A DNA stretch of 64,000 nt from Escherichia coli (GTDB taxonomy: Bacteria; Pseudomonadota; Gammaproteobacteria; Enterobacterales; Enterobacteriaceae): NCBI RefSeq assembly GCF_036507355.1, contig NZ_AP027877.1, one strand, 5' to 3'. Numbering within the stretch: the stretch's first letter is position 1; each line of letters starts with the position of its first letter. Below, in pieces: positions 12,809 to 57,503 of the stretch. The notes under the pieces were generated by a model that ran no database searches, was not told where the DNA came from, and worked only from the letters and a program-made list of their open reading frames with translations. A program made the translations under genes and the position numbers.

Positions 12809-13996
12809 TTAGAACTGGTAGACTAAGCCCACAGCAACGATATCATCGGTAGCGATGCCGTTTTCTTTGTAGAAGTCGTCGTCGTTGTCCAGCAGGTTGA
12901 TTTTGTAATCAACATAAGTGGACATGTTTTTGTTGAAGTAGTAGGTCATACCAATATCAACATATTTAACCAGATCTTTGTTGGTGTAATGATGATTACC
13001 CTGGCTGTCGAAGTTATCACTATTTACACCGCCTAAATCCTTACCTTTAGATTGCAGGTAAGCGATGGACGGGCGCAGACCGAAGTCGAACTGATACTGA
13101 GCAACAACTTCAAAGTTTTGGGTTTTGTTAGCGATGGCATCAGCATCACCGTAACCAGTCATGTTACGGGTTTCAGCATACATAGCTGCTAAGTAAACGT
13201 TATTAGCGTCGTATTTAGCACCAACGGTCCATGCTTCTGCTGTTTCACCGCCAGCAGTTGCATCGAAGCGATCTCCATAACGAGTGTTATGAGTACCTTT
13301 GTGAACCTGATTGTCGGTACGGTCAGAGTTAGAGTAAGCAGCGCCCAGACTTAAACCAAAGTCAAAGTCATAGGAAGTGGACATACCGTAACCGTCGCCG
13401 TTCTCTTTAGCAAGTTTACGTCCATTACCGTTACCTGAACCTTCTTGATCAAATAATCCGCTTTTCTCGTTGTTACCCTGATACTGGAGTGCAAAGTTCA
13501 GACCATCAACTTGACCAAAGAAACCATTGTTACGATAGGTTGCTACGCTGTTAGCACGACCGTTCATGAAGTTGTCAGCGCCAGCATAGGTATCTCCACC
13601 AAATTCTGGCAGCATATCGGTCCATGCTTCTACGTCATATACGACACCGTAGTTACGACCATAGTCGAAAGTACCATTCTGACCAAAGCCGAAACCTGCA
13701 AATGCCAGACGCGTTGCGGTATTACCCTTGTCGCTTTCAGGACCGTTTGCGCCAATGTTAAATTCCCACTGACCATAACCAGTGAACTGGTCAGCGATCT
13801 GGGTTTCACCTTTGAAACCGATACGGGCATATGACATGTCGCCATCACTGCCAGAGTCATCAGAGAAGTAGTGCAGACCCGCTACTTTTCCGTACAAATC
13901 CAGTTTATTGCCATCTTTATTATAGACTTCAGCCGCATTTGCTGCGCCAGCAACTAATAACGCCGGGACCAGCATTGCCAGAACTTTTCTTTTCAT
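12809..13996 (-). CDS. yedS: OmpC/OmpF-family general porin, apparently intact
   Basis: Signal peptide [21 protein letters not shown], ~395 aa, C-terminal ...GLVYQF. Confidence 0.88.
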
Positions 13997-14307
13997 TATG
14001 TATTCCCTTGTGATTATAATCTTCATGAATATATCAATAAGTGCCGTTATCCAAAAAAAAGCACATTTGGATACTATTCTATGAAGTTCATTTTATTTTA
14101 AAGATTACATGTAACAAATGTATTTAAAAGACTTCAAAATGTTTCTAATCTATTTAATATGATTCATAATTATGAATTCTAAATATAAATATTCATGAAA
14201 ATTATAAGTATATATCAATATGTTATGAGTTGAGCGGAAAGATAGGGAGTATCAATGATTGTTACGCCAAACACCTGGTGTGATCACGCGCACATTAATG
14301 AAGGCAT

Positions 14308-28534: not shown

Positions 28535-29671
28535 TTAGGCGAAAATATCAACGCCGCTGTTGCCTGTTACACGCCCTTGTAAAGAGACGGGAACCGGAAG
28601 CGTATCGTCGTCTTCCCCCGCCAGAGGTTCATGGTTTGCTGTGCGTTGGCTTTGCTGTTGCTGGGAAGCGGCCTGCTGCTGACCACTAAAGCTTTCGCCA
28701 CTGATGTTGCTTTGCCCTAACTGAATGCCACTTTCGGCCAGCTGCGTACGCAGTACCGGCAGCGCAGCTTCCAGGGCGGCGCGTACGTGTTGATGCGGTG
28801 AAACCATCTGGATTTGCGCCTGGTTATCATCCACTTTGAGGGAGATTTGCACTTCACCTAAATCCTGCGGGTGCAGACGCAACTCTGCACTTTGTTGCCC
28901 CTGGCGGGTGAACAGCGAAATATGCTGGCTTAATGATTGTTGCCATTCGTGAGAACCCAGCGGTGCACTCAAAACAGGCGCGGCGACGGTGGGCAGTGGC
29001 TGTGTCTGGTGTGGAGTGATTAGCGGGCTGGCGGCAGCGGTCACCGGTGAAGGTGTGCTGATGACTTCCGCTTTACTCTGGGCTTCTGCTACCAGCGGTG
29101 TTAATGGCTGAGCTGGCGTGCCGGGGGCATCATCAGGCTGTGCTGTTGTGAGTTGCGCAGAAGTCAGTTTTGTGAAGAGCGTTGGTTTCTCTGCCGGTAA
29201 CACGGTTGACGGCACATCAGTCACTTTGGGCGTATTGTCAAAACCCGGCAACATCGCAAAAAGGGCGCTCAGGCTTGCGGTGACGTCTTCATTCAGATCA
29301 TCCGCTTTTTCGTCTTTTGTCGTATTTTTGTCAGCCACCGCAGCCACCGCAGCCAACGCCATCGTCTGAGCGGTGGTTAACGGTGTTGATGTGGATTGTT
29401 CGTCGTTGATGACAGGCGGTGTTTCATCCACAGGTATCAGTAAATCCGCTTGTTGCGCGTCGGAAACAATATCGCTGATCAGCGGCTCGCCTTTTGTCGT
29501 AGGCTTATCTGTTGCCACCAGCAACTGGGGGGCCGCTTTGTCGGTAGTTGTCTCGCCTGCTAATGCTTCGCTCAACAACGCGAGAAAATCTTGTGCAGCA
29601 TCGCTGGCTTTGCCGCCAGGCAATGTGGTGGTGTCAACGTCGGCGGTAATCAAGGGCGCTAAGCGAATCAT
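28535..29671 (-). CDS. fliK: Flagellar hook-length control protein FliK
   Basis: 378 aa, Pro/Thr/Ala-rich linker, C-terminal T3S4 domain; contains a 9-bp tandem repeat at 29332-29358. Confidence 0.92.
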
Positions 29672-30111
29672 TCAGGTTTCCTCATGGCGGCGCGCTGGGC
29701 GAACTCATCCATCTTTTTCTGATCGAGGCGGTTTTCTGCAAGCAGTGCCGCCGTGGATTGCCGTTCCTGCAGTGTCTGCTAGGCCTGCAAACGTTGTTTC
29801 TTTTCTCGCCAGCTGTTCAGGGCAATGTCAACTTTCTGCGTCCACTGATTAAGTTGCTGGCGATGCTGAGTAATGGCTTTTTCCAGCGTCTGGATAAACT
29901 GCTGATAGTTGATCCAGCGGTTGCTGGTCATCCCGGCACTCATATCGCTGTTGAGGTTATTGCGATATTCATTCTGATAATCGATCAGCATTTTGAGCTG
30001 TTCTTCCGCCTGCTGACACCCGCGACGCATTTCACCCAGCAGGCGCGCGGCATCCTCTACCTCTTTTTCTGCCAGATCTTTCAGGGTCGCCAGCGCGCCA
30101 TGTTCTGCCAT
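29668..30111 (-). pseudogene. fliJ: Flagellar export protein FliJ with internal amber codon
   Basis: 110 codons then TAG (plus-strand CTA 29779-29781); same frame continues 36 codons to a TGA overlapping the fliK ATG (ATGA), total 147 codons. Confidence 0.85.
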
Positions 30112-36015: not shown

Positions 36016-36071
36016 GGTACGCCTTTATCCGTGACAACACCTGTTGCTGGCCTGTTCGCCTGCTCTGTCGG

Positions 36072-36884: not shown

Positions 36885-37086
36885 ATTATCCGTGGCGATT
36901 CATACTTTTTATAGAATGCAATCCTATTAAAGAGGCATTTTTAATGCCATGGACTTTGACAGACATTACCTATGGAATATCGCAGAGAAAATATATTGTT
37001 ACGAATCCCGATGATTATGATAAATATTCTTACATGGTTAAAAGGATAGTAATAGATGGTCATAATTAAATAATTTATTTATGTGC

Positions 37087-38152
37087 TGAATTTACAATCC
37101 AAGTGCAACAAAAAAAGAAGTACTCATCAACTAGAATATAATTTTGTTTCCACACAAAAACCACTTCCAAATGATGAGTACTTCCTACCGACATCTTACA
37201 ATAAACGAGCGAGAAAAGATAATGATTTTACTCGCACAGGGCAAAAAACAAGCAGAAATTGCCAAAGCACTGGGACGTAGCTCCAGCACCATTTCTCGCG
37301 AGCTGAAACGACACGCTCTAGAAAGCTACAGTGCAACGAACGCACAAAACAGCTATTTGAAGCATCGTCAAAATAGCAAAGCACAGCGCAAATTAGAGCA
37401 GCCTGAATATTTCAATTTGGTGCAAGAAAAGTTTCTGACAGAAAACTGGTCGCCCGAACAAATCAGCGCACGATTAAAATTGGAAAAATCTGAATTATCC
37501 ATTAGTTATTCAACCATTTATCGTGGTATTTATTCAGGGTTGTTTGATATAGGCGAACGCAAAGCCAGTCGCAAACTGCGCCACAAAGGCAAAACACGGC
37601 ATACAAAAAATCATCATGAAAAACGTGGCAAAATTCAGATATCCAACCATTTGAACGACCGTCCCATTTCGGCGCAAAATCGCAGTCGCTTTGGACATTG
37701 GGAAGCCGATACCGTACTGGGTAAAGCGGGTGGAGCTTGTTTGCTGACGCTGACGGAACGCAAAAGTCGTTTTGAGTTGGTGAAGAAAATTCCTGCCAAA
37801 AAAGCCGAAGCAGTCCAAAAAGCCATGATTGAATTGCTGGATTCACATATATTGCGGTCAATTACGCCAGACCGTGGTAAAGAATTTGCCCAACATCGTT
37901 TGGTAACAGAAGCACTGGGTGTAGAATTTTACTTCCCCGAGCCGCATCAACCGTGGACACGGGGAACGAATGAAAATACAAATGGGTTACTTCGTGAATA
38001 CTTTCCGAAGCACCAAGACATCAATCAGTGGAGCGAAGTTGATATTCAACAGGTGATCAATAAACTGAATTTACGACCACGTAAATGTTTAGGTTGGAAA
38101 ACACCTTATGAAGTTTACTTCAAAAAATCGTTGCACTTGGTTTGACAATTCA
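37087..38152 (+). mobile_element. IS30-family insertion sequence (~1.07 kb, AT-rich; ISApl1-like by size and organisation)
   Basis: Single transposase ORF; imperfect ~23-bp inverted repeats TGAATTTACAATCCAAGTGCAAC / GTTGCACTTGGTTTGACAATTCA; right repeat overlaps the tnp stop. Confidence 0.7.
37222..38145 (+). CDS. IS30-family DDE transposase
   Basis: HTH N-terminus, conserved GHWEADTV and TRGTNENTNGLLR motifs; 307 codons from ATG 37222 (track ORF from TTG 37144). Confidence 0.8.
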   Translation: MILLAQGKKQAEIAKALGRSSSTISRELKRHALESYSATNAQNSYLKHRQNSKAQRKLEQPEYFNLVQEKFLTENWSPEQISARLKLEKSELSISYSTIYRGIYSGLFDIGERKASRKLRHKGKTRHTKNHHEKRGKIQISNHLNDRPISAQNRSRFGHWEADTVLGKAGGACLLTLTERKSRFELVKKIPAKKAEAVQKAMIELLDSHILRSITPDRGKEFAQHRLVTEALGVEFYFPEPHQPWTRGTNENTNGLLREYFPKHQDINQWSEVDIQQVINKLNLRPRKCLGWKTPYEVYFKKSLHLV

Positions 38153-38295
38153 AGGTAATTAATTAGGCGTAATTGTGTCACTGGAATAGAGGTTTCTTGT
38201 GGCGCATGTAGAAGTGGCGTCTATGGACAAGGCGTTTCCTGCTGGTGATAAATAAAGGCGCAGCACGTCGAATGCAAGAATGTGCTGCGTCTGGC

Positions 38296-38775
38296 TCATG
38301 GCAATTCATTATTTTCGCATAGCGTCAATGATAAAAATCGACTGTGTGGATCAAATCGATAATCAGCAAACGGTTCGCAATCAACGAATCCATGTTTCAA
38401 ATAAAGTTGATGGCAGGCCGTAAATCCAGCCTGTGTACCCGTTTCTAAGCTCAGGCGATGAAGGCATCTGTCCTGGGCGACCTGCAAAATGTGGCGTAAA
38501 ATCAGACTGGCGACACCACGACGTAAATAATTTGGCGCGGTACGCATTGATTTTAGCTCGCCATGTTTATCATCCAGCAACTTCAGCGCACCAATTCCTG
38601 CGAGTTGTTCGCCTTCCCATACTGACCAGAATGTCACTGTCGGGTTACGTAATTTTTGCACATCTAAAGCATGACTGCTTTCGGGGGGAGACTGCTGCAG
38701 CATGTCGGAAATATGGTAAGCCACTAATGCTTGCACTGCTGGATGGGTGAGATCATCTGTTTTAATCGTGAACAT
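38296..38775 (-). CDS. yedL: GNAT-family N-acetyltransferase
   Basis: 159 aa. Confidence 0.85.
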   Translation of the reverse strand: MFTIKTDDLTHPAVQALVAYHISDMLQQSPPESSHALDVQKLRNPTVTFWSVWEGEQLAGIGALKLLDDKHGELKSMRTAPNYLRRGVASLILRHILQVAQDRCLHRLSLETGTQAGFTACHQLYLKHGFVDCEPFADYRFDPHSRFLSLTLCENNELP

Positions 38776-38885
38776 GACGATTCCGTATTGGTGTTATTTT
38801 TGCAATATGCCAACAGGTAATGAAATCTTTGTCTAATAGAGATTTCTTATGACGCAGTATTGTTGATCAATAATCTCCAGGCTTA

Positions 38886-39554
38886 TCAAACAGGTTGAAT
38901 TAACTCCGCGCCCTGGTTTTTAACATTACCCACCGCGCGCGATACCGGGTGCCAGGTGAACTGGTTTGCTGGCACACAACCACTGGCCGCGATTTCTGAG
39001 GCTTCTTTACCGCTAATCTCTTGCCGCATCCATTCCCGCGCAGCATCTGGCGACAGTACCAGTGGGCGGCGGTCATGAATATCCACCAGACCTTGATCTG
39101 CCGCCGCAGTGACAATCAAAAATCCTTCGGCTTCGTCACCGCGCTCGAACGGTGTGCTGCCTATCGCGGCCATAAAAACAGGTTGTCCATCAGTACGATA
39201 GATAAAATAAGGCTGCTTTTTGTCGCCTTCTTTTTTCCACTCAAACCAGCCATCGGCAAAACAGATTGCCCGACCATGTTGCCAGAGCGGTTTAAACATG
39301 CGACTCGTTGCGGCAGTTTCTACGCGGGCGTTAATCAGTGGCGGTTTATCCCACCATCCGGGAGCATATCCCCAAAAAACCGGATCCAGATGAAGGTGTT
39401 CATCACGTTCACTGAGCAGAAGGACTTTGGTTCCCGGCGCGACGTTGTATCTGCCAATGGGTTCGGGATCATAGGGAATATCGCGTTCAATATCTTCAGC
39501 GAGAAGCGCAAGGTAATCTTCACGCGTTTGGGATTGGGCAAAGCGTCCACACAT
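38886..39554 (-). CDS. yedK: SOS-response-associated peptidase (SRAP/HMCES-like abasic-site binding protein)
   Basis: 222 aa starting MCGRF (Cys2). Confidence 0.9.
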   Translation of the reverse strand: MCGRFAQSQTREDYLALLAEDIERDIPYDPEPIGRYNVAPGTKVLLLSERDEHLHLDPVFWGYAPGWWDKPPLINARVETAATSRMFKPLWQHGRAICFADGWFEWKKEGDKKQPYFIYRTDGQPVFMAAIGSTPFERGDEAEGFLIVTAAADQGLVDIHDRRPLVLSPDAAREWMRQEISGKEASEIAASGCVPANQFTWHPVSRAVGNVKNQGAELIQPV

Positions 39555-39662
39555 AGAAACCTCCTGAGAGCACACTGAAAAGAATAGGAGAGGGGGCGGG
39601 TAAAATCTATGTGGTACAGAGGCAACGATATTCCCGCTGTGGGCCACAGCGGGAATGAGGGA

Positions 39663-39896
39663 TTACTTCTGAATTAAATAACGAATGGTCGGCCCGTCTT
39701 GCTGAATATCCAGCACCGTATAGCCGTGATTACGCGCATCCAGTGGAATATTATTGATCGACTGCGGACAGTCGCTCACCACTTCCAGGATTTCCCCTTT
39801 TTTTAACTGCGGCATCGCCTCAAGGGTTGCGACTGCCGGATAAGGGCAGGGTTCACCCACCATATCAAGGCGGTAATCAGGAACGATATTTTTCAT
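39663..39896 (-). CDS. yedF: TusA-like sulfur carrier protein
   Basis: 77 aa with CPxP motif. Confidence 0.9.
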   Translation of the reverse strand: MKNIVPDYRLDMVGEPCPYPAVATLEAMPQLKKGEILEVVSDCPQSINNIPLDARNHGYTVLDIQQDGPTIRYLIQK

Positions 39897-41098
39897 GCGA
39901 TCTCCTTAGCAGTCTGCGGTGCCGCACGGCGGAAGAAGCGTTTTTCCCAGCCGATAATCAACATCAGCGCAGCAAACAACAGCAAATATGTCACCAGCAG
40001 GCCACCCATCGGACCAAAGGTTTTCAGCAGGTTGATTTTGTCCCAGTCGGTGGCCAGCGCCGGAGCGAAATCATCCCAGTAATACGCCAGAATCGTTGAG
40101 CCGATCACATTGCCCAGACCGACCCACCAGTAGTGCACCTGGCCTTCTACCGCGCGGTACATCCAGCCGGTTTCGCAGCCGCCAGCCAGCACGATGCCAA
40201 AACCAAACAGTAAACCACCAATTACCGCGTTTGGTCCCGCCCACATGATTTTGGGTTCAACGCCTAACTGTACGTAACTGAAGATCCCGATGGCACTCAC
40301 CGCTATACCAAGAATGATTGCTTTCGCCATATGGGTACGTCCGGTGATCCACATATCGCGGAACGCCGAAGTAAAGCAGATTTGCGCACGTTCAATCAGT
40401 AAACCAAAGCCGACGCCAAACAGCATTGCCAGCCCCAGTTTGGGTTGGTTCATCGCTGTGAGCAGCGCCCAGCCCAGCATGCCGAAAAAGACCAGCATCC
40501 CGAGACGAAAACGACGCCGCGCCTGATCCGGTTTTTGCGTCAGCGGTGAGGCGGCAGAAACTTTCTGCATTTTCACGGGAATACGGAAGATGGGCAGCAG
40601 GGTAAAGCGCGCGCCAAACCATGAACCAATGGCAGTGGCGATGGCAAAGAACCAGGCATGCAGCGAGAACTGAGGAATACCGGTAAAGAACGCCGCCAGG
40701 TTACAGCCCATTGCCAGACGCGCGCCAAAACCGGCGATAATGCCGCCAATGATGGCCTGCATAATGCGGATACGGCTGCGCGGCATTCGCAGTTTGACAT
40801 TGTTGGCCCACAGCGCTGCGGCAAAGCAGCCGCCAAACATACCGAGGATCATCATCCCGTCGATGCGGGTTAATGGCGATCCTTCCAGATGGATAATTTT
40901 AAAGTAACCCCACTCTTCAGCATGGACGCCGAACAGTTGCAGGAGCTGGCCGCCCCAACGGGTAAATTCACCCGTGACAGCCCAAAAGGTGCCAGTAATG
41001 CCAAAATAGTAAGTGGAGAGAATACCCGCCGCGATGACCGCGGGGATGGGCGCCCAGAATTTAATCAACCAGGCGTGTTTGAATTGCTGCCATGACAT
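39893..41098 (-). CDS. yedE: YeeE/YedE-family membrane transporter (selenium/thiosulfate-related)
   Basis: 401 aa polytopic; overlaps yedF start. Confidence 0.9.
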   Translation of the reverse strand: MSWQQFKHAWLIKFWAPIPAVIAAGILSTYYFGITGTFWAVTGEFTRWGGQLLQLFGVHAEEWGYFKIIHLEGSPLTRIDGMMILGMFGGCFAAALWANNVKLRMPRSRIRIMQAIIGGIIAGFGARLAMGCNLAAFFTGIPQFSLHAWFFAIATAIGSWFGARFTLLPIFRIPVKMQKVSAASPLTQKPDQARRRFRLGMLVFFGMLGWALLTAMNQPKLGLAMLFGVGFGLLIERAQICFTSAFRDMWITGRTHMAKAIILGIAVSAIGIFSYVQLGVEPKIMWAGPNAVIGGLLFGFGIVLAGGCETGWMYRAVEGQVHYWWVGLGNVIGSTILAYYWDDFAPALATDWDKINLLKTFGPMGGLLVTYLLLFAALMLIIGWEKRFFRRAAPQTAKEIA

Positions 41099-41284
41099 GA
41101 ATGTAGCCTCTGAACTCAGAAGGTTTGAAACAAGAGTCGCGAATCATACACCATGCAAATTTATTTTCGGGGTAATAATTCACAAAAATAATAGTTAGAT
41201 CAAATTTCTCTCTGAACCTGGAAAGGCTGGCGACATCAGGGCTTTAATGCCACAATCCTCTTTTCTTCTCATGCAGGACGAATG

Positions 41285-41698
41285 ATGAAAAAACTCGCAA
41301 TTGCAGGCGCGCTCATGTTGCTGGCGGGCTGTGCCGAAGTCGAAAACTATAACAATGTCGTGAAAACCCCCGCGCCGGACTGGCTGGCGGGCTACTGGCA
41401 GACCAAAGGGCCGCAACGTGCGCTGGTCAGTCCGGAAGCGATAGGCAGCCTGATTGTCACTAAAGAGGGCGATACTCTTGATTGCCGTCAGTGGCAGCGG
41501 GTGATTGCTGTGCTGGGCAAGTTGACATTGATGTCTGATGATCTCACTAACGTTACCGTAAAACGTGAGCTGTACGAGGTTGAGCGTGACGGTAACACCA
41601 TTGAGTACGATGGTATGACGATGGAGCGTGTGGATCGCCCGACGGCAGAGTGTGCCGCTGCGCTGGATAAAGCGCCGTTACCGACGCCATTGCCGTAA
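41285..41698 (+). CDS. yedD: Lipoprotein YedD
   Basis: 137 aa with lipobox LLAGC. Confidence 0.85.
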   Translation: MKKLAIAGALMLLAGCAEVENYNNVVKTPAPDWLAGYWQTKGPQRALVSPEAIGSLIVTKEGDTLDCRQWQRVIAVLGKLTLMSDDLTNVTVKRELYEVERDGNTIEYDGMTMERVDRPTAECAAALDKAPLPTPLP

Positions 41699-41731
41699 TG
41701 AAATCTCCCCGGCTTGCCGCCGGGGATGAAT

Positions 41732-43219
41732 TTAAATCACCTCTTCGATAACCCACACGCTAACGCTGCCGCCGTTGCAAAAGAAGGTCGCTTCGCCGTT
41801 TTCGTCGGTTACTACACTCTCTTGCCGGTTCCCAAGAAAATCACGCCAGGTTTTATTGCCGTAATTCTCTCCTAAATGAATGGTTTTTTCGCCATCATCT
41901 CCGTTCGACATGACCACCACGCAGCCGGGATATTCGTCGGTGCCACTGCGGCTAAAGGCAATGCAGTTCGGATGGTCGAAAAATAACGTCTGTACACCGT
42001 GGGCGAAACGCTGACGGGCGAGAATTAACTCATCAAGCTGTTCGATTATTGGCATATCTATCGGATAGGTTTGCCCGTCACCACCGACATCTTCGTAATG
42101 CGCACCGTAGAGGTCCGGATAGAACACCGAAGGAACGCCATTTTCCCGCAACAAAATTAGAGCATACGCCAGCGGTTTAAACCACGGTTCGACCGGTGCT
42201 TCGAGGGCTTGCAACGGTTGGGTGTCGTGGTTGGCAACGAGGGTTACGGCGTGAAAAGGATCGGCTTCCACCAGCGTCCCAGTGAAAATCTGCGTCATGT
42301 CGTAGTTGCGTCCCATGCGCGATGCTTCATGGAATTTCATCTGCAGCGGCGCATCAAACAGCATGGTTTTGCCTTCCACCTGATCAATATACGTTTGCAG
42401 CTTATCAACTTCATGCGACCAGTACTCCGCCACAATAAACAGCGGCTTTGGCGCAACTTCCTGTACGTGTTCGATCCACTCTTTATAAAACCAGGCTGGA
42501 ATATGTTTGACCGCATCAAGACGAAAACCGTCGCATTGCGTTTGTTCCATCACCCAGCGCGCCCAGTATTTAATCTCTTCCGTCACGGCATGATTGCGAA
42601 AATCGATATTCTCGCCCATCAGATAATCGAAATTACCGAGTTCATCATCAACCTGATCGTTCCAGCCTTCGCCGGTGTAGTCGTTAACAATTTTAAAAAT
42701 GCCATCTTCATTGGGGTTTTCGATATGGTCGATACCGCTAAAACATTTGAAATCCCAGATAAACTGTGAGTATTGCCCGGCACGAGCGGGGAAGGTGTAA
42801 CGCGTCCAGCCTTCGCATTCAATGATTTCTTCATCAATTTGCGTACGGTCGTCAGCATTAACGCGCTGCACGCGAATAGCTTCTTTTTCATCCGCGCCCA
42901 TTTTGTGGTTGACTACCACGTCCAACAGCACCGCAATGTCATTACGTTTCAGGGCGTCAATGGCGGCCAGCAGTTGTGCTTTATCGCCATATTTAGTAGG
43001 GATGCTGCCTTTCTGATCAAACTCGCCTAAATCAAATAAATCATAGGAGTCGTAGCCGACCGAATACCCGCCCGATGCGCCTTTATAGGCGGGCGGCAAC
43101 CAGACCATATTGATACCAATATCATTAAAACCGTCGGCGCGCTCGGCCAGTTCAGGCCAAAGCTTACCGCCTTCCGGGTAATACCAGTGAAAACATTGTA
43201 ACAGCGTGGGATTACGCAT
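41732..43219 (-). CDS. amyA: Cytoplasmic alpha-amylase
   Basis: 495 aa, GH13 motifs. Confidence 0.93.
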
Positions 43220-43296
43220 TCTTCGACTCCATTCAAGGGGAACATTAGAAGCGTAGCCGTAATCGGATTATTCGCGAGCCATCGACTCATTCAGAT

Positions 43297-43662
43297 TCAA
43301 AAGAGGTTATCCTGCGGAGCCAGCACAAAGCCGCCCTGATCGCCATAGGCACTTAACACCGATTTTTGCACCGATGACTGACCGACCAGTTTCGCCAGTT
43401 CATCCATCCGAATCTGTAATAACTGCTTTACCTTGCTTTCGTTGTCGAGAATCAGGCGCAGCATCGGGCGGAGCTGCTCCTGCATCGTGGTGGACGGGTC
43501 AACCTCTTCAGTCAAATGTGCAATCTCCTGCACCGCATTAACATACGCCATTTCGCTGGCGATGAGTTCGTCCCATTGTTCTTCCGTTGCCAGGCGTAAC
43601 ATGAGCTGGCTTTTTTCGACGAGTTGTTGCCAGGCGAAATATAAATGCGGTGCATGGTTCAT
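43297..43662 (-). CDS. fliT: Flagellar chaperone / anti-FlhDC factor FliT
   Basis: 121 aa. Confidence 0.9.
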
Positions 43663-44072
43663 CAGACTGGGTCCTGAATCAAAGAAGGGGAGAGTAACGA
43701 CTCTTTCCAGGCATCGGCAATATTACGCATTAATGCTTCCACTTCTTCGACTGCGGAGACATCGTTGCGTAAATTGGCTTGCAGCAAGCGCCTGACCATA
43801 TAGCTATAAAGAGCAATCAAGTTTTGGGTTAATTCGTCTTTGCTCTCTTCATCAAGACTCACCCGCAGTCCGTTCTCAATGATGTTGATCGCTTTTGACA
43901 AAGAGACGCCTTTGCCTTGCTGATTGTTGTCCTGCATAAACAGGCGCGCTCTAACCAGTGCGCTCAGCACTCCATCAAATAGCATGGTGACCAGCTGCTG
44001 CTGGCTGGCGCTCATTACGGCGCTTTCGACGCCAATTTGTGCATAGGCCTGGGTGCCTTTTGCCGCGTACAT
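43662..44072 (-). CDS. fliS: Flagellin-specific chaperone FliS
   Basis: 136 aa. Confidence 0.92.
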
Positions 44073-44096
44073 GACCTGTCTCCCGATGAATAATGA

Positions 44097-45503
44097 TTAC
44101 TTGGAATTACTGTTGTTTTCGAACTGCTGCGTTAAGTAGCTGCTGGTGCTGTTTAACGAGGTCATTAAAACGTCCAGTTGGGTAAATTGTTCTTTGTAGC
44201 GCGCGACCTGCGCATCAATGCGATCGCTGGCGGCGTTGTAGTCTTTAGTTAACTTATTCAGGGTCTTACTAACGCCATCGGTAGCGGCTTTAATAATGCC
44301 CGTTGTCGAAAGCCAACTGGTCAGGTTGCTGCCGATGGTGGTTGTGATGCCGGTTTTTTTACCATCGCCAACAATCAATGCACCTACGCCGCTGGCATCT
44401 TTTTTCAGTGCAGCGGTGAGTTTGTCGGCATCCAGTTCCAGTTTGCCATCGCTGGGATCGGTCGTGATACCAATCTGCGCCAACGTTTTATAGCTGGAAG
44501 AACTGACGGTATTACTCAGCATCGATTTCAACTGCGTCTGAATCGTCCGCAGCGTGGAGTCGCCGAGCAGTGCGCCATTGCTAGAACTCTGGCTATCAGC
44601 TCCCGCATCTACGGCGGTGTATTTGGTCAGGCTGCTGAAGGTATCTATTAGCGAGTTATAGGCATTCACCCAGTCTTTAATCGCTGTTTGCGCTTTGGAG
44701 GTGTCCTGTGTGATGGTTAGCGTCTGGTTGCCCGTGGTGACATCGTTCAGGTTCAGGGTGATGTTTTCCAGCGCGTCGCTGATGGTGTTGCTGCTGTTCT
44801 CAATGGCGACGTTGTTGACCGTCAGCTGCGCATTCTGGGCGGCAACCGAGACCTCCATACCGTTGCTGCTGGCACTGGCGTCATAGCCCATAAAACTTTG
44901 TAGCGCATCATCACCGCTGACCGAGAGTGTCATCGCATTATCAAGGCCGGTGTCATTTGATGTGACTGACAGACGATATTCACCGTTACCCACGTTAATG
45001 ATGCTTGCGCTTACGCCTGCTTTTGCGTTGTTGATGGCATCACGGATCCCGCTTAACGATGAGTTAGTCGCGCTGATATCAATGGTAATCGGATCTTTGT
45101 CGCCGCCTTGTTGAATGGTGAGTTTACTGTCGCTGGTGGCGATCGCCGTTTTCGTATCGTCTCTGGTGGTGCGCGTGGTCAGGGTTTGCGCCTGCGCCAG
45201 ATGGGTGACGCTGATGGTGTATTTCCCGGCGATGGCGTTACCCGCGGTGGTGGCACTGAACGCGGTGGTGCTGCTGGTGGTGCTGGTGGCGGAAAAAAGA
45301 TCGGCTTTAGACAATGCAGTATTGGCGGTCTGGAAAGTCGTCAACGCGCTTTTCAGCGTACCGTAGGCGCTAAGTTTAGCGGTAAACGACGATTGCTGAT
45401 TTGAAATGGGGGTTAGCGTCGCTTTTTGCGCGGCGGTGAGGCTATCAAGGATTGAACTTAAATCCAGACCTGACCCGACTCCCAGCGATGAAATACTTGC
45501 CAT
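44097..45503 (-). CDS. fliD: Flagellar filament cap protein FliD
   Basis: 468 aa. Confidence 0.93.
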   Translation of the reverse strand: MASISSLGVGSGLDLSSILDSLTAAQKATLTPISNQQSSFTAKLSAYGTLKSALTTFQTANTALSKADLFSATSTTSSTTAFSATTAGNAIAGKYTISVTHLAQAQTLTTRTTRDDTKTAIATSDSKLTIQQGGDKDPITIDISATNSSLSGIRDAINNAKAGVSASIINVGNGEYRLSVTSNDTGLDNAMTLSVSGDDALQSFMGYDASASSNGMEVSVAAQNAQLTVNNVAIENSSNTISDALENITLNLNDVTTGNQTLTITQDTSKAQTAIKDWVNAYNSLIDTFSSLTKYTAVDAGADSQSSSNGALLGDSTLRTIQTQLKSMLSNTVSSSSYKTLAQIGITTDPSDGKLELDADKLTAALKKDASGVGALIVGDGKKTGITTTIGSNLTSWLSTTGIIKAATDGVSKTLNKLTKDYNAASDRIDAQVARYKEQFTQLDVLMTSLNSTSSYLTQQFENNSNSK

Positions 45504-45546
45504 GCGATTTCCTTTTATCTTTCGACACGTAAAACGAATACCGGGG

Positions 45547-45573
45547 TTATCGGCCTGAATTGCGCAAAGTTTA
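45547..45573 (-). promoter_or_regulatory. Sigma-28 (FliA) promoter of fliDST
   Basis: Plus strand TTATCGGC-N11-AAAGTTTA is the reverse complement of TAAAGTTT-N11-GCCGATAA. Confidence 0.8.
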
Positions 45574-45665
45574 CGTTTAATTGTTTTTTTTAATAGCGGG
45601 AATAAGGGGCAGAGAAAAGAGTATTTCGGCGACTAACAAAAAATGGCTGTTTGTGAAAAAAATTC

Positions 45666-45692
45666 TAAAGGTTGTTTTACGACAGACGATAA
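45666..45692 (+). promoter_or_regulatory. Sigma-28 (FliA) promoter of fliC
   Basis: TAAAGGTT-N11-GACGATAA about 75 nt upstream of the fliC ATG. Confidence 0.8.
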
Positions 45693-45768
45693 CAGGGTTG
45701 ACGGCGATTGAGCCGACGGGTGGAAACCCAATACGTAATCAACGACTTGCAATATAGGATAACGAATC

Positions 45769-47436
45769 ATGGCACAAGTCATTAATACCAACAGCCTCTC
45801 GCTGATCACTCAAAATAATATCAACAAGAACCAGTCTGCGCTGTCGAGTTCTATCGAGCGTCTGTCTTCTGGCTTGCGTATTAACAGCGCGAAGGATGAC
45901 GCCGCAGGTCAGGCGATTGCTAACCGTTTTACTTCTAACATTAAAGGCCTGACTCAGGCTGCACGTAACGCCAACGACGGTATTTCTGTTGCACAGACCA
46001 CTGAAGGCGCGCTGTCTGAAATCAACAACAACTTACAGCGTATCCGTGAACTGACGGTTCAGGCTTCTACCGGGACTAACTCCGATTCGGATCTGGACTC
46101 CATTCAGGACGAAATCAAATCTCGTCTGGACGAAATTGACCGCGTATCCGGTCAAACCCAGTTCAACGGTGTGAACGTACTGGCGAAAGACGGTTCGATG
46201 AAAATTCAGGTTGGTGCGAATGACGGCCAGACTATCACTATTGATCTGAAGAAAATTGACTCTGATACGCTGGGTTTGAGTGGATTTAATGTGAATGGTG
46301 GCGGGGCTGTGGCTAATACTGCAGCGACTAAAGATGATTTGGTCGCTGCATCAGTTTCAGCTGCGGTAGGTAATGAATACACTGTCTCTGCTGGCCTGTC
46401 GAAATCAACTGCTGCTGATGTTATTGCTAGTCTCACAGATGGTGCGACAGTAACTGCGGCTGGTGTAAGCAATGGTTTTGCTGCAGGGGCAACTGGAGAT
46501 GCTTATAAATTCAATCAAGCAAACAACACTTTTACTTACAATACCACCTCCACAGCGGCAGAACTCCAATCTTACCTCACGCCTAAGGCGGGGGATACCG
46601 CAACTTTCTCCGTTAAAATTGGTGGCACCAAGCAGGATGTTGTTCTGGCTAGTGATGGCAAAATCACAGCAAAAGACGGGTCTAAACTTTATATTGACAC
46701 CACAGGGAATTTAACCCAAAACGGTGGTGGTACTTTAGAAGAAGCTACCCTCAATGGCTTAGCTTTCAACCACTCTGGTCCAGCCGCTGCTGTACAATCT
46801 ACTATTACTACTGCGGATGGAACTTCAATAGTTCTAGCAGGTTCTGGCGACTTTGGAACAACAAAAACTGCTGGGGCTATTAATGTCACAGGAGCAGTGA
46901 TCAGTGCTGATGCACTTCTTTCCGCCAGTAAAGCGACTGGGTTTACTTCTGGCACTTATACCGTAGGTACAGATGGAGTTGTTAAATCTGGTGGCAATGA
47001 CGTTTATAACAAAGCTGACGGGACGGGATTAACTACTGACAATACCACAAAATATTATTTACAAGATGACGGGTCTGTAACTAATGGTTCTGGTAAAGCT
47101 GTGTATGCTGATGCAACAGGAAAACTAACTACTGACGCTGAAACTAAAGCCGAAACCACCGCCGATCCCCTGAAAGCTCTGGACGAAGCGATCAGCTCCA
47201 TCGACAAATTCCGTTCTTCCCTCGGTGCGGTGCAAAACCGTCTGGATTCCGCAGTCACCAACCTGAACAACACCACTACCAACCTGTCTGAAGCGCAGTC
47301 CCGTATTCAGGACGCTGACTATGCGACCGAAGTATCCAACATGTCGAAAGCGCAGATTATCCAGCAGGCCGGTAACTCCGTGCTCGCAAAAGCCAACCAG
47401 GTACCGCAGCAGGTTCTGTCTCTGCTGCAGGGTTAA
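45769..47436 (+). CDS. fliC: Flagellin FliC (555 aa; central domain differs from K-12)
   Basis: Conserved N- and C-terminal D0/D1 segments; Thr/Ala/Gly-rich hypervariable middle at ~46270-47180. Confidence 0.93.
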
Positions 47437-47479
47437 TCGTCGTAAACTGATTAACTGAGACTGACGGCAACGCCAAATT

Positions 47480-47580
<101 letters not shown>

Positions 47581-47610
47581 CATGAAGCGCAATTTGTCAG
47601 CAACGTGCTT

Positions 47611-47634
47611 CCCCGCCACCGGCGGGGTTTTTTC
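47611..47634 (+). terminator. Rho-independent terminator ending the fliC transcript
   Basis: CCCCGCC-ACC-GGCGGGG followed by T7. Confidence 0.8.
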
Positions 47635-47755
47635 TGCATGGAATTTACCGGTAACCCCCAAATAACCCCTCATTTCACCCACTAATCGTCCGATTAAAAA
47701 CCCTGCAGAAACGGATAATCATGCCGATAACTCATATAACGCAGGGCTGTTTATC

Positions 47756-48475
47756 GTGAATTCACTCTATACCGCTGAAGGTGTAATGGATAAACACTCG
47801 CTGTGGCAGCGTTATGTCCCGCTGGTGCGTCACGAAGCATTGCGCCTGCAGGTTCGACTGCCCGCGAGCGTGGAACTTGACGATCTGCTACAGGCGGGCG
47901 GCATTGGGTTACTTAATGCCGTCGAACGCTATGACGCCCTACAAGGAACGGCATTTACAACTTACGCAGTGCAGCGTATCCGTGGCGCTATGCTGGATGA
48001 ACTTCGCAGCCGTGACTGGGTGCCGCGCAGCGTGCGACGCAACGCGCGTGAAGTGGCACAGGCAATAGGGCAACTGGAGCAGGAACTTGGCCGCAACGCC
48101 ACGGAAACTGAGGTAGCGGAACGTTTAGGGATCGATATTGCCGATTATCGCCAAATGTTGCTCGACACCAATAACAGCCAGCTCTTCTCCTACGATGAGT
48201 GGCGCGAAGAGCACGGCGATAGCATCGAACTGGTTACTGATGTTCATCAGCGAGAAAACCCGCTACAACAACTGCTGGACAGTAATCTGCGCCAGCGGGT
48301 GATGGAAGCCATCGAAACGCTGCCGGAGCGCGAAAAACTGGTATTAACCCTCTATTACCAGGAAGAGCTGAATCTCAAAGAGATTGGCGCGGTGCTGGAG
48401 GTCGGGGAATCGCGGGTCAGTCAGTTACACAGCCAGGCCATTAAACGGTTACGCACTAAACTGGGTAAGTTATAA
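47756..48475 (+). CDS. fliA: Flagellar sigma factor sigma-28 FliA
   Basis: 239 aa, GTG start, MNSLYTAEGVMDKHSLW. Confidence 0.95.
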   Translation: MNSLYTAEGVMDKHSLWQRYVPLVRHEALRLQVRLPASVELDDLLQAGGIGLLNAVERYDALQGTAFTTYAVQRIRGAMLDELRSRDWVPRSVRRNAREVAQAIGQLEQELGRNATETEVAERLGIDIADYRQMLLDTNNSQLFSYDEWREEHGDSIELVTDVHQRENPLQQLLDSNLRQRVMEAIETLPEREKLVLTLYYQEELNLKEIGAVLEVGESRVSQLHSQAIKRLRTKLGKL

Positions 48476-48520
48476 CGTCAGTAAATGCCGCACTTTAACT
48501 TTGACTACCAGGAGTTCTTA

Positions 48521-49072
48521 ATGATGGTGCAGCACCTGAAAAGACGGCCATTAAGCCGCTATCTTAAAGACTTTAAACACAGCCAGACCCATTGCGCGCA
48601 TTGCCGTAAATTACTCGATCGCATTACCTTAGTTCGCGACGGCAAAATAGTGAATAAAATCGAGATTTCCCGCCTGGACACGCTGCTTGATGAAAATGGC
48701 TGGCAAACGGAACAAAAATCATGGGCGGCATTGTGCCGATTTTGCGGTGATTTACACTGCAAAACGCAGAGTGATTTTTTCGATATTATCGGCTTTAAGC
48801 AATTTCTTTTTGAGCAAACTGAAATGAGCCCAGGTACGGTGCGTGAATATGTCGTTCGTCTGCGCCGTTTGGGGAATCATCTACACGAGCAAAATATTTC
48901 CCTCGATCAGCTGCAGGACGGTTTCCTTGATGGAATCCTCGCCCCGTGGCTGCCCACCACCAGCACCAACAATTACCGCATCGCATTACGGAAGTATCAA
49001 CACTATCAGCGCCAAACCTGTACCGGACTTGTGCAGAAATCCTCCAGCCTGCCTGCTTCTGATATATATTAA
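48521..49072 (+). CDS. fliZ: Regulator FliZ
   Basis: 183 aa from MMVQHLKRRPL. Confidence 0.9.
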   Translation: MMVQHLKRRPLSRYLKDFKHSQTHCAHCRKLLDRITLVRDGKIVNKIEISRLDTLLDENGWQTEQKSWAALCRFCGDLHCKTQSDFFDIIGFKQFLFEQTEMSPGTVREYVVRLRRLGNHLHEQNISLDQLQDGFLDGILAPWLPTTSTNNYRIALRKYQHYQRQTCTGLVQKSSSLPASDIY

Positions 49073-49159
49073 ATAAGAATAAGATGTAGCGGAGTTGTTT
49101 TTGTGTTTACAAACAATGGCTCTACACTGCAAACAGACATAACAACATTCGGGGTGAAT

Positions 49160-51051
<1,892 letters not shown>

Positions 51052-51065
51052 CTCCGGGAACGCTC

Positions 51066-51734
51066 ATGCAAGAAAGTATACAACTGGTTATTGATTCCTT
51101 GCCGTTCCTGCTGAAAGGGGCTGGGTATACGCTGCAACTCAGTATCGGCGGCATGTTTTTTGGCTTACTGCTCGGGTTTATTCTCGCGCTGATGCGCCTG
51201 TCGCCAATCTGGCCCGTGCGCTGGCTGGCGCGTTTTTATATCTCTATTTTTCGTGGTACGCCGCTCATCGCACAACTGTTTATGATCTATTACGGCCTGC
51301 CGCAGTTTGGTATCGAATTAGATCCCATTCCGTCAGCAATGATTGGTCTGTCGCTCAACACTGCCGCCTATGCTGCCGAAACGCTTCGCGCCGCCATTTC
51401 TTCTATTGATAAAGGTCAGTGGGAAGCAGCTGCCAGTATTGGTATGACGCCATGGCAGACTATGCGTCGCGCGATTTTGCCACAGGCGGCGCGGGTGGCG
51501 TTGCCGCCGCTGTCAAACAGCTTTATCAGTCTGGTAAAAGATACGTCGCTGGCCGCGACAATCCAGGTGCCGGAGCTGTTCCGTCAGGCGCAGTTGATTA
51601 CCTCGCGCACGCTGGAAGTGTTCACCATGTACCTGGCGGCTTCGCTCATCTACTGGATCATGGCGACAGTGTTATCGACGTTGCAGAACCATTTTGAGAA
51701 TCAACTTAATCGCCAGGAGAGAGAACCAAAATGA
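51066..51734 (+). CDS. tcyL: L-cystine ABC transporter permease
   Basis: 222 aa. Confidence 0.92.
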   Translation: MQESIQLVIDSLPFLLKGAGYTLQLSIGGMFFGLLLGFILALMRLSPIWPVRWLARFYISIFRGTPLIAQLFMIYYGLPQFGIELDPIPSAMIGLSLNTAAYAAETLRAAISSIDKGQWEAAASIGMTPWQTMRRAILPQAARVALPPLSNSFISLVKDTSLAATIQVPELFRQAQLITSRTLEVFTMYLAASLIYWIMATVLSTLQNHFENQLNRQEREPK

Positions 51735-52483
51735 GTGCCATTGAAGTTAAGAACCTGGTGAAAAAATTCCACGGTCAGACGGTGCTGCACGGTATCGACC
51801 TTGAGGTAAAGCCTGGCGAAGTGGTGGCAATTATCGGTCCGAGTGGTTCCGGCAAAACCACGTTGCTACGCAGCATAAATCTGCTGGAACAACCCGAAGC
51901 GGGAACGATCACCGTTGGCGATATCACTATTGATACTGCACGTTCATTAAGTCAGCAAAAATCGCTGATTCGCCAGTTGCGTCAGCACGTCGGGTTTGTC
52001 TTCCAGAACTTTAATTTGTTTCCGCATCGTACGGTGCTGGAGAACATTATTGAAGGGCCGGTGATCGTCAAAGGCGAACCAAAAGAAGAGGCTACGGCGC
52101 GCGCTCGCGAGCTACTGGCAAAAGTTGGGCTGGCCGGTAAAGAAACCAGCTATCCACGTCGTTTGTCTGGCGGTCAACAGCAGCGTGTTGCGATTGCGCG
52201 TGCGCTGGCAATGCGTCCTGAGGTGATTTTGTTTGACGAGCCAACGTCAGCGCTGGATCCAGAGCTGGTGGGCGAAGTCCTGAACACCATCCGTCAGCTG
52301 GCGCAGGAAAAGCGCACGATGGTGATTGTGACACACGAAATGAGCTTTGCCCGGGATGTTGCGGACCGGGCGATCTTTATGGACCAGGGGCGGATAGTCG
52401 AGCAGGGGGCCGCAAAAGCGTTATTTGCCGATCCCAAGCAGCCTCGCACCCGCCAGTTCCTCGAGAAGTTTCTGCTGCAATAA
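51731..52483 (+). CDS. tcyN: L-cystine ABC transporter ATP-binding protein
   Basis: 250 aa, Walker A GPSGSGKT and LSGGQQQR signature. Confidence 0.93.
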   Translation: MSAIEVKNLVKKFHGQTVLHGIDLEVKPGEVVAIIGPSGSGKTTLLRSINLLEQPEAGTITVGDITIDTARSLSQQKSLIRQLRQHVGFVFQNFNLFPHRTVLENIIEGPVIVKGEPKEEATARARELLAKVGLAGKETSYPRRLSGGQQQRVAIARALAMRPEVILFDEPTSALDPELVGEVLNTIRQLAQEKRTMVIVTHEMSFARDVADRAIFMDQGRIVEQGAAKALFADPKQPRTRQFLEKFLLQ

Positions 52484-52712
52484 TAAGAAAAAATCAGCCC
52501 CGACGATTCACCTGTCGGGGCGGGACGCCATTTCAAGCCTGATAAAACTGCTTAACAAATCAGCATAACTCATTAATAACATAAGAGAATGCGATGGCTT
52601 GCAAAAGTAATTCATTGCCTGAATAATATAAATTATATATAAATCTTATTTATGTGATAGTTTGAATTATCATTATAAATGATACTCACTCTCAGGGGCG
52701 TTGCGGTTTACT

Positions 52713-53435
52713 ATGCAGGATACGGATTTTTTCAGCTGGCGTCGCACGATGCTGTTGCGTTTTCAGAGGATGGAGACCGCAGAAGAGGTCTACCATGAAA
52801 TTGAGCTTCAGGCTCAGCAGCTGGAGTACGATTACTATTCGTTATGTGTCCGCCACCCGGTACCATTCACTCGACCTAAAGTGGCTTTCTACACCAATTA
52901 CCCTGAGGCGTGGGTTAGTTATTATCAGGCAAAAAACTTTCTCGCAATTGATCCGGTGCTGAACCCTGAAAACTTTAGTCAGGGCCATCTAATGTGGAAT
53001 GATGACTTATTCAACGAAGCACAGCCGTTATGGGAAGCCGCGCGCGCACATGGTTTACGCCGCGGTGTCACTCAGTATTTAATGCTGCCAAACCGGGCGC
53101 TGGGCTTTTTGTCCTTTTCCCGTTGCAGCGCGCGCGAAATACCCATTCTTAGTGATGAACTGCAATTAAAAATGCAGTTACTGGTGCGCGAAAGTCTGAT
53201 GGCTCTGATGCGTTTAAATGATGAAATAGTGATGACGCCAGAGATGAATTTCAGCAAGCGCGAAAAAGAAATTCTGAGGTGGACGGCGGAAGGGAAGACA
53301 TCAGCAGAGATAGCGATGATTTTGTCAATCTCTGAGAATACGGTCAATTTCCACCAGAAAAACATGCAGAAAAAAATTAATGCACCAAATAAGACCCAGG
53401 TTGCCTGTTACGCGGCCGCTACTGGCTTAATTTGA
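52713..53435 (+). CDS. sdiA: LuxR-family quorum-sensing regulator SdiA
   Basis: 240 aa from MQDTDFFSWRR. Confidence 0.93.
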   Translation: MQDTDFFSWRRTMLLRFQRMETAEEVYHEIELQAQQLEYDYYSLCVRHPVPFTRPKVAFYTNYPEAWVSYYQAKNFLAIDPVLNPENFSQGHLMWNDDLFNEAQPLWEAARAHGLRRGVTQYLMLPNRALGFLSFSRCSAREIPILSDELQLKMQLLVRESLMALMRLNDEIVMTPEMNFSKREKEILRWTAEGKTSAEIAMILSISENTVNFHQKNMQKKINAPNKTQVACYAAATGLI

Positions 53436-53464
53436 TCTCTTTTCTGTCCTGCGTGCCAGATGCA

Positions 53465-53499
53465 AAAACCGGCTGAAAGGCACGCTATCAGCCGGTTTT
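53465..53499. terminator. Bidirectional terminator between convergent sdiA and yecF
   Basis: A-run, 10-bp stem AACCGGCTGA/TCAGCCGGTT, then T-run. Confidence 0.7.
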
Positions 53500-53502
53500 A
53501 TA

Positions 53503-53727
53503 TTACTGACGGTAGGCTTGTTTAATTTGCTTAACCGTTTTGGAAAATACTGCAGCCTGGGTTTCGTCTTCGATCAGCGCAAGCTGTTTTTCCATCTTTA
53601 ACATCACGCGGCCCGCGTCAGCTTGTCCCATCGCCTGCAGCATCAGCGTCAGCATCGCTTTCAGGCAGGAGACTTCATTTGCCAGTTCTTGATTATTCTC
53701 GGCAGTAGAAAAATCAGGCGTACTCAT
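53503..53727 (-). CDS. yecF: Small protein YecF (DUF2594)
   Basis: 74 aa. Confidence 0.85.
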
Positions 53728-54185
53728 TTATTTTCCTCGTCATGTTGCAATGAAAATTTGCGGTGAAAAATGTTAAGGCGGCGGAGTATACCATAAGCTT
53801 TGCTAAAAATAGCAGTGGTTGTTTTTTGAGCGTGATATCGGCAGTGCTATAAAATACGTTAATATAATGACCAATAAATATTTTTATCATGAATGTTTTT
53901 TGCCCGTATTGTTCGGGTTAATTAATGTTACATATTCAGCGGGCTGATTTTCATTTTTGCTGAATAAAGTCAATTTTTGTCACATTTCATCGCAGGGCTT
54001 ACTGTGAAACGATCCCGGAAGCCGTTGGTGACGGGCGTGACCATAACTGTGGACAATCGAATTTACAAAAACGAGAGAAAAATCGAATACCCACCATTTT
54101 TAACGTTTCAAAGTTGCAATAAAAACCGCTAATATACGAATGACTAACTATCAGTAGCGTTATCCCTATTTCTGGAGATATTCCT

Positions 54186-54842
54186 TTGATCAACGTTCTA
54201 CTTGTTGATGACCACGAACTGGTGCGCGCAGGGATACGACGCATTCTGGAAGATATAAAGGGTATAAAAGTCGTCGGTGAGGCATCGTGCGGTGAAGACG
54301 CCGTTAAGTGGTGCCGGGCAAATGCCGTTGACGTGGTGCTAATGGACATGAGTATGCCGGGCATTGGCGGTCTTGAGGCGACGCGTAAAATCGCGCGTTC
54401 CACAGCTGATGTCAAAATCATCATGCTTACCGTCCATACAGAAAACCCTTTACCAGCGAAAGTCATGCAGGCCGGTGCTGCGGGCTACCTCAGCAAAGGC
54501 GCGGCACCGCAGGAAGTCGTGAGTGCGATCCGTTCTGTCTATTCAGGGCAGCGTTACATTGCTTCTGACATCGCTCAACAAATGGCGTTAAGCCAGATCG
54601 AACCAGAAAAAACAGAAAGCCCATTTGCCAGTTTGTCTGAACGTGAATTGCAGATTATGCTGATGATCACCAAGGGCCAGAAGGTCAATGAGATCTCAGA
54701 ACAGCTCAATCTCAGTCCGAAAACGGTGAACAGCTACCGCTATCGTATGTTCAGTAAACTAAACATTCATGGCGATGTTGAGCTGACTCACCTGGCAATT
54801 CGCCATGGTCTGTGTAATGCGGAGACATTATCAAGTCAGTGA
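54186..54842 (+). CDS. uvrY: Response regulator UvrY (BarA partner)
   Basis: 218 aa [16 protein letters not shown] start; LuxR-type HTH. Confidence 0.93.
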
Positions 54843-56671
54843 GTGATCAGTTTGACGCAAAAGCGTTTTTAAAAACCGTAACCAGCCAGCCAGGCGTTTA
54901 TCGCATGTACGATGCTGGTGGTACGGTTATCTATGTCGGCAAAGCGAAAGACCTGAAAAAACGGCTTTCCAGCTATTTCCGTAGCAACCTCGCTTCGCGC
55001 AAAACCGAAGCGCTGGTCGCCCAGATCCAGCAAATTGATGTAACGGTTACTCATACAGAAACCGAAGCGCTGTTGCTGGAACACAACTACATCAAACTCT
55101 ATCAGCCGCGTTACAACGTTTTGCTACGCGATGATAAATCATATCCTTTTATCTTCCTGAGTGGCGATACCCACCCGCGTCTGGCGATGCATCGTGGTGC
55201 GAAGCATGCCAAAGGTGAATATTTCGGCCCGTTCCCGAATGGCTATGCCGTACGTGAAACACTGGCGCTACTGCAAAAGATTTTCCCCATTCGCCAGTGC
55301 GAAAATAGTGTTTATCGCAATCGCTCGCGTCCGTGTCTGCAATATCAGATAGGGCGCTGTCTGGGACCGTGCGTTGAAGGACTGGTGAGTGAAGAAGAAT
55401 ACGCTCAGCAGGTCGAGTATGTGCGCCTGTTTTTGTCTGGCAAAGATGATCAGGTGCTTACGCAACTGATTAGCCGTATGGAAACTGCCAGTCAGAATCT
55501 GGAGTTTGAAGAAGCGGCACGTATTCGCGACCAAATTCAGGCGGTGCGACGCGTCACCGAAAAACAGTTTGTGTCCAATACCGGCGACGACCTTGACGTT
55601 ATTGGTGTGGCGTTCGATGCGGGCATGGCTTGTGTCCACGTATTGTTCATTCGTCAGGGCAAAGTGCTCGGCAGCCGCAGCTATTTCCCGAAAGTGCCTG
55701 GCGGTACGGAACTGAACGAGGTGGTGGAAACCTTCGTAGGACAGTTCTATTTACAAGGCAGCCAGATGCGCACCTTACCGGGTGAGATCCTGCTCGATTT
55801 TAATCTTAGCGATAAAACGCTGCTCGCCGATTCCCTTTCAGAACTGGCGGGACGCAAGATTAATGTTCAAACCAAACCTCGTGGCGATAGGGCGCGTTAC
55901 CTGAAACTCGCGCGCACCAATGCGGCGACGGCCTTAACCAGCAAACTTTCGCAGCAATCTACCGTTCACCAGCGGCTTACAGCACTTGCCAGCGTGTTGA
56001 AATTGCCGGAAGTGAAGCGGATGGAGTGCTTTGACATCAGCCATACCATGGGTGAACAAACCGTCGCTTCCTGTGTGGTGTTTGATGCTAACGGCCCGCT
56101 GCGTGCGGAGTATCGGCGCTATAACATTACTGGCATCACGCCGGGCGATGATTATGCGGCGATGAATCAGGTGCTGCGTCGGCGTTATGGTAAAGCCATC
56201 GACGACAGTAAGATCCCGGATGTGATACTTATCGACGGCGGCAAAGGCCAGCTTGCGCAGGCGAAAAATGTCTTCGCCGAACTGGATGTCTCATGGGATA
56301 AAAATCATCCGCTGCTACTTGGCGTTGCCAAAGGAGCAGATCGTAAGGCTGGGCTGGAAACGCTGTTCTTTGAGCCGGAAGGTGAGGGATTCAGTTTGCC
56401 GCCAGATTCTCCCGCGCTGCATGTTATCCAGCATATTCGCGATGAATCACACGATCACGCGATTGGCGGGCACCGTAAAAAACGGGCGAAGGTCAAAAAT
56501 ACCAGTTCCCTGGAAACCATTGAAGGCGTCGGGCCAAAACGCCGGCAAATGTTGTTGAAATATATGGGCGGTTTGCAAGGTTTACGTAACGCCAGCGTCG
56601 AGGAAATTGCAAAAGTGCCGGGTATTTCGCAAGGTCTGGCAGAAAAGATCTTCTGGTCGTTGAAACATTGA
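54839..56671 (+). CDS. uvrC: Excinuclease ABC subunit C
   Basis: 610 aa, GTG start, GIY-YIG N-terminus. Confidence 0.95.
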
Positions 56672-56727
56672 TGTCTCTGTAGCAACATAGGGGTAATCTT
56701 ACTGACAACAGATAGTTACCCGTCATT

Positions 56728-57427: not shown

Positions 57428-57503
<76 letters not shown>

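Follow-up and report, generated by a model that had tools for sequence, protein, structure and literature searches.

The conserved ends of flagellin build the D0/D1 helical core, which polymerises into the filament, and its centre folds into outer domains, which are exposed at the surface and bear the H epitopes. Cryptic flagellin genes are found in non-motile enterobacteria such as Shigella. FliJ, which acts in flagellar export, has the fold of a two-helix coiled coil. Several systems related to the locus analysed in our study have been described. Strain 536 was reported to have the serotype O6:K15:H31 (PMC4164713). MS6192 belongs to ST101 clade 1 and was typed H31 with SerotypeFinder and EcOH, the typing threshold of that study being 85% nucleotide identity (10.1101/860726). 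The H6 flagellin of enteropathogenic E. coli (EPEC) was described as having an outer-domain sheath built from its three outer domains, D2-D4 (PMC8931119). FliJ is required for efficient flagellar export, yet it is not essential, since its loss strongly reduces export without abolishing it. Occasional flagella are still made by fliJ null mutants, and in Salmonella the loss of FliJ can be bypassed through FlhB(P28T) (PMC3195256).

In the window, the stretch of 64,000 nucleotides of Escherichia coli DNA analysed here, fliC encodes a flagellin of 555 aa (Table 1). The list of open reading frames and tblastn against K-12 placed fliD-fliS-fliT on the minus strand on one side of the gene and fliA-fliZ on the plus strand on the other. 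Hence, fliC is divergent from fliDST and lies upstream of fliAZ; its promoter is of the sigma-28 type. The product matched the NCBIfam model NF005953 for flagellins of the FliC/FljB family with 791 bits (cut-off 619). Both helical flagellin domains scored above their curated cut-offs, namely Flagellin_N (PF00669; aa 5-140, 158 bits, cut-off 26.6) and Flagellin_C (PF00700; aa 468-553, 111 bits, cut-off 23), and the Pfam family PF12445 (FliC) was found at aa 333-459. By homology, the N-terminal part (aa 1-175) is predicted to be the D0/D1 core. A search of fliC for tandem repeats was negative. Two antisense open reading frames of 88 aa each in the centre of the gene (46206..46472 and 46689..46955, minus strand) were rejected as genes and are regarded as by-products of the Ala/Thr/Gly-rich frame.

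Table 1. Features of the fliC locus, the fliJ gene and the insertion elements, with positions in the window.
Feature	Position	Strand	Basis or remark
Partial IS3	1-802		inside yeeJ, at the window edge; orientation opposite to the IS3 at 35673
fliJ with premature amber, TGG to TAG at codon 111 (stop 29779-29781)	29668..30111	-	DNA alignment with K-12; tblastn, one in-frame stop
IS3-family element	35673-37084		absent from K-12 at this position; G4/9 counterpart L001 10977-12388
ISApl1, 1070 bp	37085-38154		directly after the IS3-family element; absent from K-12 at this position
fliD (filament cap), intact, 468 aa	44097..45503	-	99.8% identity to K-12 FliD
Sigma-28 (FliA) type promoter of fliC, TAAAGGTT-N11-GACGATAA	45666..45692	+	sequence read; unchanged from K-12
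fliC flagellin, assigned to H31	45769..47436	+	open reading frame of 555 aa, 1668 nt
Conserved N-terminal part of FliC, aa 1-175	45769..46293	+	93.7% identity to K-12 FliC
Variable central region of FliC, aa 176-463 (serotype-determining, outer-domain part)	46294..47157	+	
Codon 283 (Lys; Glu in MS6192 H31 FliC)	46615..46617	+	protein alignment; gene nt 847; Lys common to G4/9
Conserved C-terminal part of FliC, aa 464-555	47158..47433	+	89 of 92 residues as in K-12
Intrinsic terminator 3' of fliC	47611..47633	+	stem of 7 bp, all of them GC, then a run of T
fliA (sigma-28), intact, 239 aa	47756..48475	+	99.6% identity to full-length K-12 FliA, no stop
IS1-like element	62492-63259		absent from K-12 at this position; 90.6% identical to IS1B of G4/9

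The fliC gene shares its locus, promoter and terminator with the H48 allele of K-12, and the N- and C-terminal core regions of the two proteins are 94-97% identical in the protein alignment. In contrast, aa 176-463 could be aligned with K-12 only with many gaps and scattered matching residues. FliC of K-12 MG1655 comprises 498 aa, and its centre, which cannot be aligned with that of the window as DNA, is shorter by about 57 residues. In a megablast search against MG1655 the match ended at 46259 and resumed at 47153 with about 98% identity outside the gap, and no match was obtained over the centre of the gene (46260-47152). Thus, neither the 498-aa length nor the matching centre expected for H48 was found. 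The first-pass annotation had described a 555-aa flagellin with conserved termini and a middle region, placed at 46270-47180, that differs from the 498-aa K-12 flagellin in length and sequence. Our alignments bear this out, and the proposed coordinates lie within about 30 bases of the megablast gap. It had also described the middle as rich in Thr, Ala, Gly and Ser, which holds for the first three residues but not for Ser (T 16.3%, A 16.0%, G 13.5%, S 8.0% in aa 176-463). Together the four residues account for 53.8% of the centre compared with approximately 35% in both ends. Since the centre of K-12 FliC carries an equal bias (50.6%), this composition does not discriminate the window allele; flagellin outer domains share it in general.

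The outer domains with the H epitopes, i.e. the central approximately 290 residues, are swapped wholesale between serotypes, which explains why the centre has no recognisable DNA likeness to K-12 H48. The divergent centre is a real feature of the gene and no chance pattern. There is virtually no probability that it results from a misassembly or a chimera: the frame has no interruption, each end of the protein contains a flagellin domain, and the identical 1668-bp gene (100%) is present in an independent complete genome, with 96.6-98.6% identity in dozens more. Because independent genomes carry the same gene, we excluded an artefact.

The centre of the gene (46270-47180) was used as megablast query against 5426 complete genomes, of which only 79 contained it at full length. 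These matches formed two tight groups, 27 at 99% identity or above and the rest at approximately 96.9%, the latter including the uropathogenic strain 536. In every other genome at most 9% of the query was matched, and no competing allele family of like closeness appeared. The centre shared 99.2% identity with the ST101-type alleles and 96.9% with strain 536. The whole gene was 98.1-98.6% identical at the DNA level to a group of genomes including MS6192, MS6193, AR_0118/0119/0128 and CREC-591. Against fliC of MS6192 the nucleotide identity over the whole gene was 98.5%, and against strain 536 we counted 56 differences in 1668 nt (approximately 96.6%); both genes come from strains typed H31, and both values over the full length exceed 85%. 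The encoded flagellins are 555 aa long in the window, MS6192 and strain 536 alike and are located at the same fliD-fliA locus. Between the window and MS6192 (WP_000079703.1) 554 of 555 residues are identical, the sole difference being Lys283 in place of Glu, and 548 of 555 are shared with strain 536 (WP_000079710.1), from which seven residues differ.

As the protein is one residue away from MS6192 and seven away from 536, both typed H31, we assign the window allele to H31; the assignment is by proxy, the comparison being with strains typed H31 and not with a reference allele of the typing database. The first-pass annotation had proposed a non-K-12 H allele and had named H48 beforehand as the result that would speak against it. 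H48 was not obtained, and the type can now be specified through the two typed strains. An H9 identity had been considered because of a supposed link of the best-matching strain names to ST410/ST167; it was ruled out, as MS6192 is an H31 strain of ST101 clade 1 and the centre matches that of strain 536, also H31, at 96.9%.

The 25 nucleotide differences between the window and MS6192 are unevenly distributed along fliC. Only nt 847 alters an amino acid and the other 24 are silent. Three (nt 783, 847 and 960) fall within the centre proper, another four (nt 507, 508, 516 and 543) at its 5' edge, so that the conserved ends hold 18 to 22 of the 25 depending on the choice of the boundary. This pattern fits one antigenic cassette in different chromosomal backgrounds, i.e. 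a mosaic. Lys283 itself is located in the antigenic region and may have an effect on seroreactivity. In this variable region it replaces the Glu of both H31 comparison strains, and the exact allele was shared by E. coli G4/9 only among the 5426 genomes. That Lys283 makes the allele a new H type or an antigenic subtype is nevertheless highly improbable. It is one substitution in 555 residues, more positions separate the H31 alleles of MS6192 and 536 than separate the window from MS6192, and the identities of 98.5% and approximately 96.6% are far above the typing threshold. Moreover, H31 is a long-described serotype allele, and RefSeq already contains an exact copy of the sequence (WP_021570829.1, G4/9). 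The fliC gene of the window is therefore best described as H31; it is structurally and mechanistically nothing new and represents ordinary strain variation.

Among solved structures, the best match to the window FliC was the flagellin of EPEC O127:H6 (PDB 7SN7, 7SQJ), with an E-value of 1e-180 over the full length. The two proteins are similar in overall size, and the FliC centre can be aligned over its entire length with H6 residues 166-461 (E 7e-24). However, the centre is just 39% identical, with the lowest identity over aa 368-417 (8 of 50 residues), and the structure that shows a sheath is that of H6. A three-domain outer build like that of H6 is likely for the H31 flagellin.

The first-pass annotation had stated that the backbone is not that of K-12 and that yedS is intact. 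Accordingly, the flanking DNA of the window was 97.9-98.4% identical to MG1655, and IS3, ISApl1 and IS1-like copies are present where K-12 has none. yedS (12809..14026, minus strand) is an uninterrupted open reading frame for a 405-aa porin of the OmpC family (NF007841, 540 bits), whereas K-12 has a pseudogene in its place. Copies of ISApl1 on mcr-1-type plasmids are 100% identical to the one in the window, which shows a 2-bp overlap consistent with target duplication. The partial IS3 at the edge of the window interrupts yeeJ, the gene of an inverse autotransporter adhesin, of which an N-terminal open reading frame of approximately 797 aa remains (796-3189).

A much closer background was found in E. 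coli G4/9, a genotype of the probiotic Symbioflor. Its fliC (NZ_CP060073.1, WP_021570829.1) is 100% identical to the window gene at the DNA level, and the identity extends over the surrounding 19 kb (38155-57500). The window strain and G4/9 are not the same: fliE-fliR and the ISApl1 copy found at the IS3 in the window are missing from G4/9, which also differs after position 57500, where an unlike island follows the tRNA-Leu gene. Neighbouring genes of fliE-fliR are absent from G4/9 as well, with an IS3 at the junction, and the gap looks like an IS3-adjacent deletion removing the flagellar region IIIb. The G4/9 element (L001 9588-12373 region) is bordered by shiA on one side and by a yedN remnant on the other. 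Missing in G4/9 are yeeJ through rcsA and fliR to fliE, all of which are kept in the window (1-38154). In the last part of the window (57500-64000), an integrase-bearing island follows downstream of the cluster of tRNA genes for Gly, Cys and Leu (57428-57727). This island shows up to 80 differences per 500 bp to G4/9, although the preceding 19 kb are identical, and appears to be mosaic or exchanged. A literature search for a published H type of Symbioflor genotypes yielded nothing usable.

With its own sigma-28 promoter and terminator, fliC of the window looks fully expressible from its sequence. We take the promoter motif to be a class 3 promoter, based on the sigma-28 consensus TAAAGTTT-N11-GCCGATAA. 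The spacer between fliD and fliC (265 bp) differs from K-12 at two positions (45554 and 45653), both outside the sigma-28 motif. The terminator is also kept in K-12, save for one T fewer. We found no silencing defect in the promoter, the region of the ribosome-binding site, the open reading frame or the terminator of fliC, and fliA is intact.

A lesion is present elsewhere in the flagellar regulon. Alignment with K-12 DNA and tblastn confirmed the fliJ lesion noticed in the first-pass annotation as an amber at codon 111 of 147. The truncated open reading frame encodes 110 of 147 aa, 37 residues being lost, and the FliJ profile TIGR02473 was matched at model positions 3-106 of 141. Within the window, fliE-I, fliK-O, fliQ, fliR, fliD, fliS, fliT, fliA and fliZ have their full length, with 98-100% identity to K-12, and fliP is an uninterrupted open reading frame of 245 aa. 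fliK (28535-29671, minus strand) encodes 378 aa with an insertion of three residues compared with K-12 (375 aa). The regular stop of fliJ and the start of fliK overlap, and a polar loss of FliK translation through lost translational coupling is possible as an effect of the amber. The Trp111-amber of fliJ also occurs in four complete RefSeq genomes (TUM9757, E92, E94 and NR301), where fliJ is annotated as a pseudogene with an 'internal stop'. As the 3-kb surroundings of fliJ in these genomes are just 97.8% identical to the window, the amber is either recurrent or has been transferred between backgrounds.

The amber truncates FliJ, which belongs to the ATPase complex of flagellar type III export. 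With a truncated FliJ, completion of the hook-basal body would be inefficient, and FlgM would be retained. Class 3 transcription and flagellin export would then be low, and the H31 antigen would be expressed weakly or not at all. Since FliJ loss is leaky in the literature, the expected phenotype is a strongly reduced flagellation rather than none. It is plausible that fliC is cryptic in this strain, as part of what characterises a cryptic gene was found, namely an intact fliC with its signals alongside the fliJ lesion. As in the cryptic flagellin genes of, e.g., Shigella, an intact fliC is kept while a lesion elsewhere could block expression; however, the lesion seen in the window is a single amber, and it lies in a gene whose loss is leaky. 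Our analysis of flagellar genes covers the window, and flhDC, flg, flhBAE and the mot/che clusters are located outside; therefore, further lesions or compensating mutations are possible.

Alternatively, the H31 allele might be expressed normally in a motile H31 strain that tolerates the fliJ amber by a part-active truncated FliJ, by read-through or by a bypass mutation. We consider this unlikely, as 37 of the 147 residues of the two-helix coiled coil are removed and RefSeq lists fliJ with the same lesion as a pseudogene in four further genomes. Moreover, fliE-fliR are absent from the sister strain G4/9, and Symbioflor strains, of which G4/9 is one, were reported in a review to express no flagellin (PMC5138452). 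Normal expression would be in line with the open reading frame, promoter and terminator of fliC, with fliA and with all other fli genes of the window, which are intact. It would also agree with the finding that FliJ is not strictly essential for export and with the FlhB(P28T) bypass known in Salmonella (PMC3195256). Considering the evidence as a whole, we regard it as very probable that the window carries an intact H31 fliC with a hypervariable centre, and the FliJ truncation may leave the H31 antigen weak or absent.

The loss of fliE-fliR in G4/9 together with the flagellin-negative Symbioflor strains points to selection on flagella that is relaxed or negative in this lineage. A broader idea would be that gut-adapted E. 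coli repeatedly shut down their flagella through lesions in flagellar export genes, reversibly by an amber and irreversibly by a deletion, while an intact fliC encoding a TLR5-stimulating H31 flagellin is kept. We regard this generalisation as speculative and quite unlikely to hold.

Beyond the description of the strain, the significance of these results is small. The strain gains an H31 genotype on a non-K-12 backbone that is closely related to the probiotic genotype G4/9. Phenotypic H-typing may read such a strain as non-motile (H-) despite the intact H31 gene. Flagellin is a TLR5 agonist, and whether a strain produces it is of practical relevance for its use as a probiotic or as a chassis.
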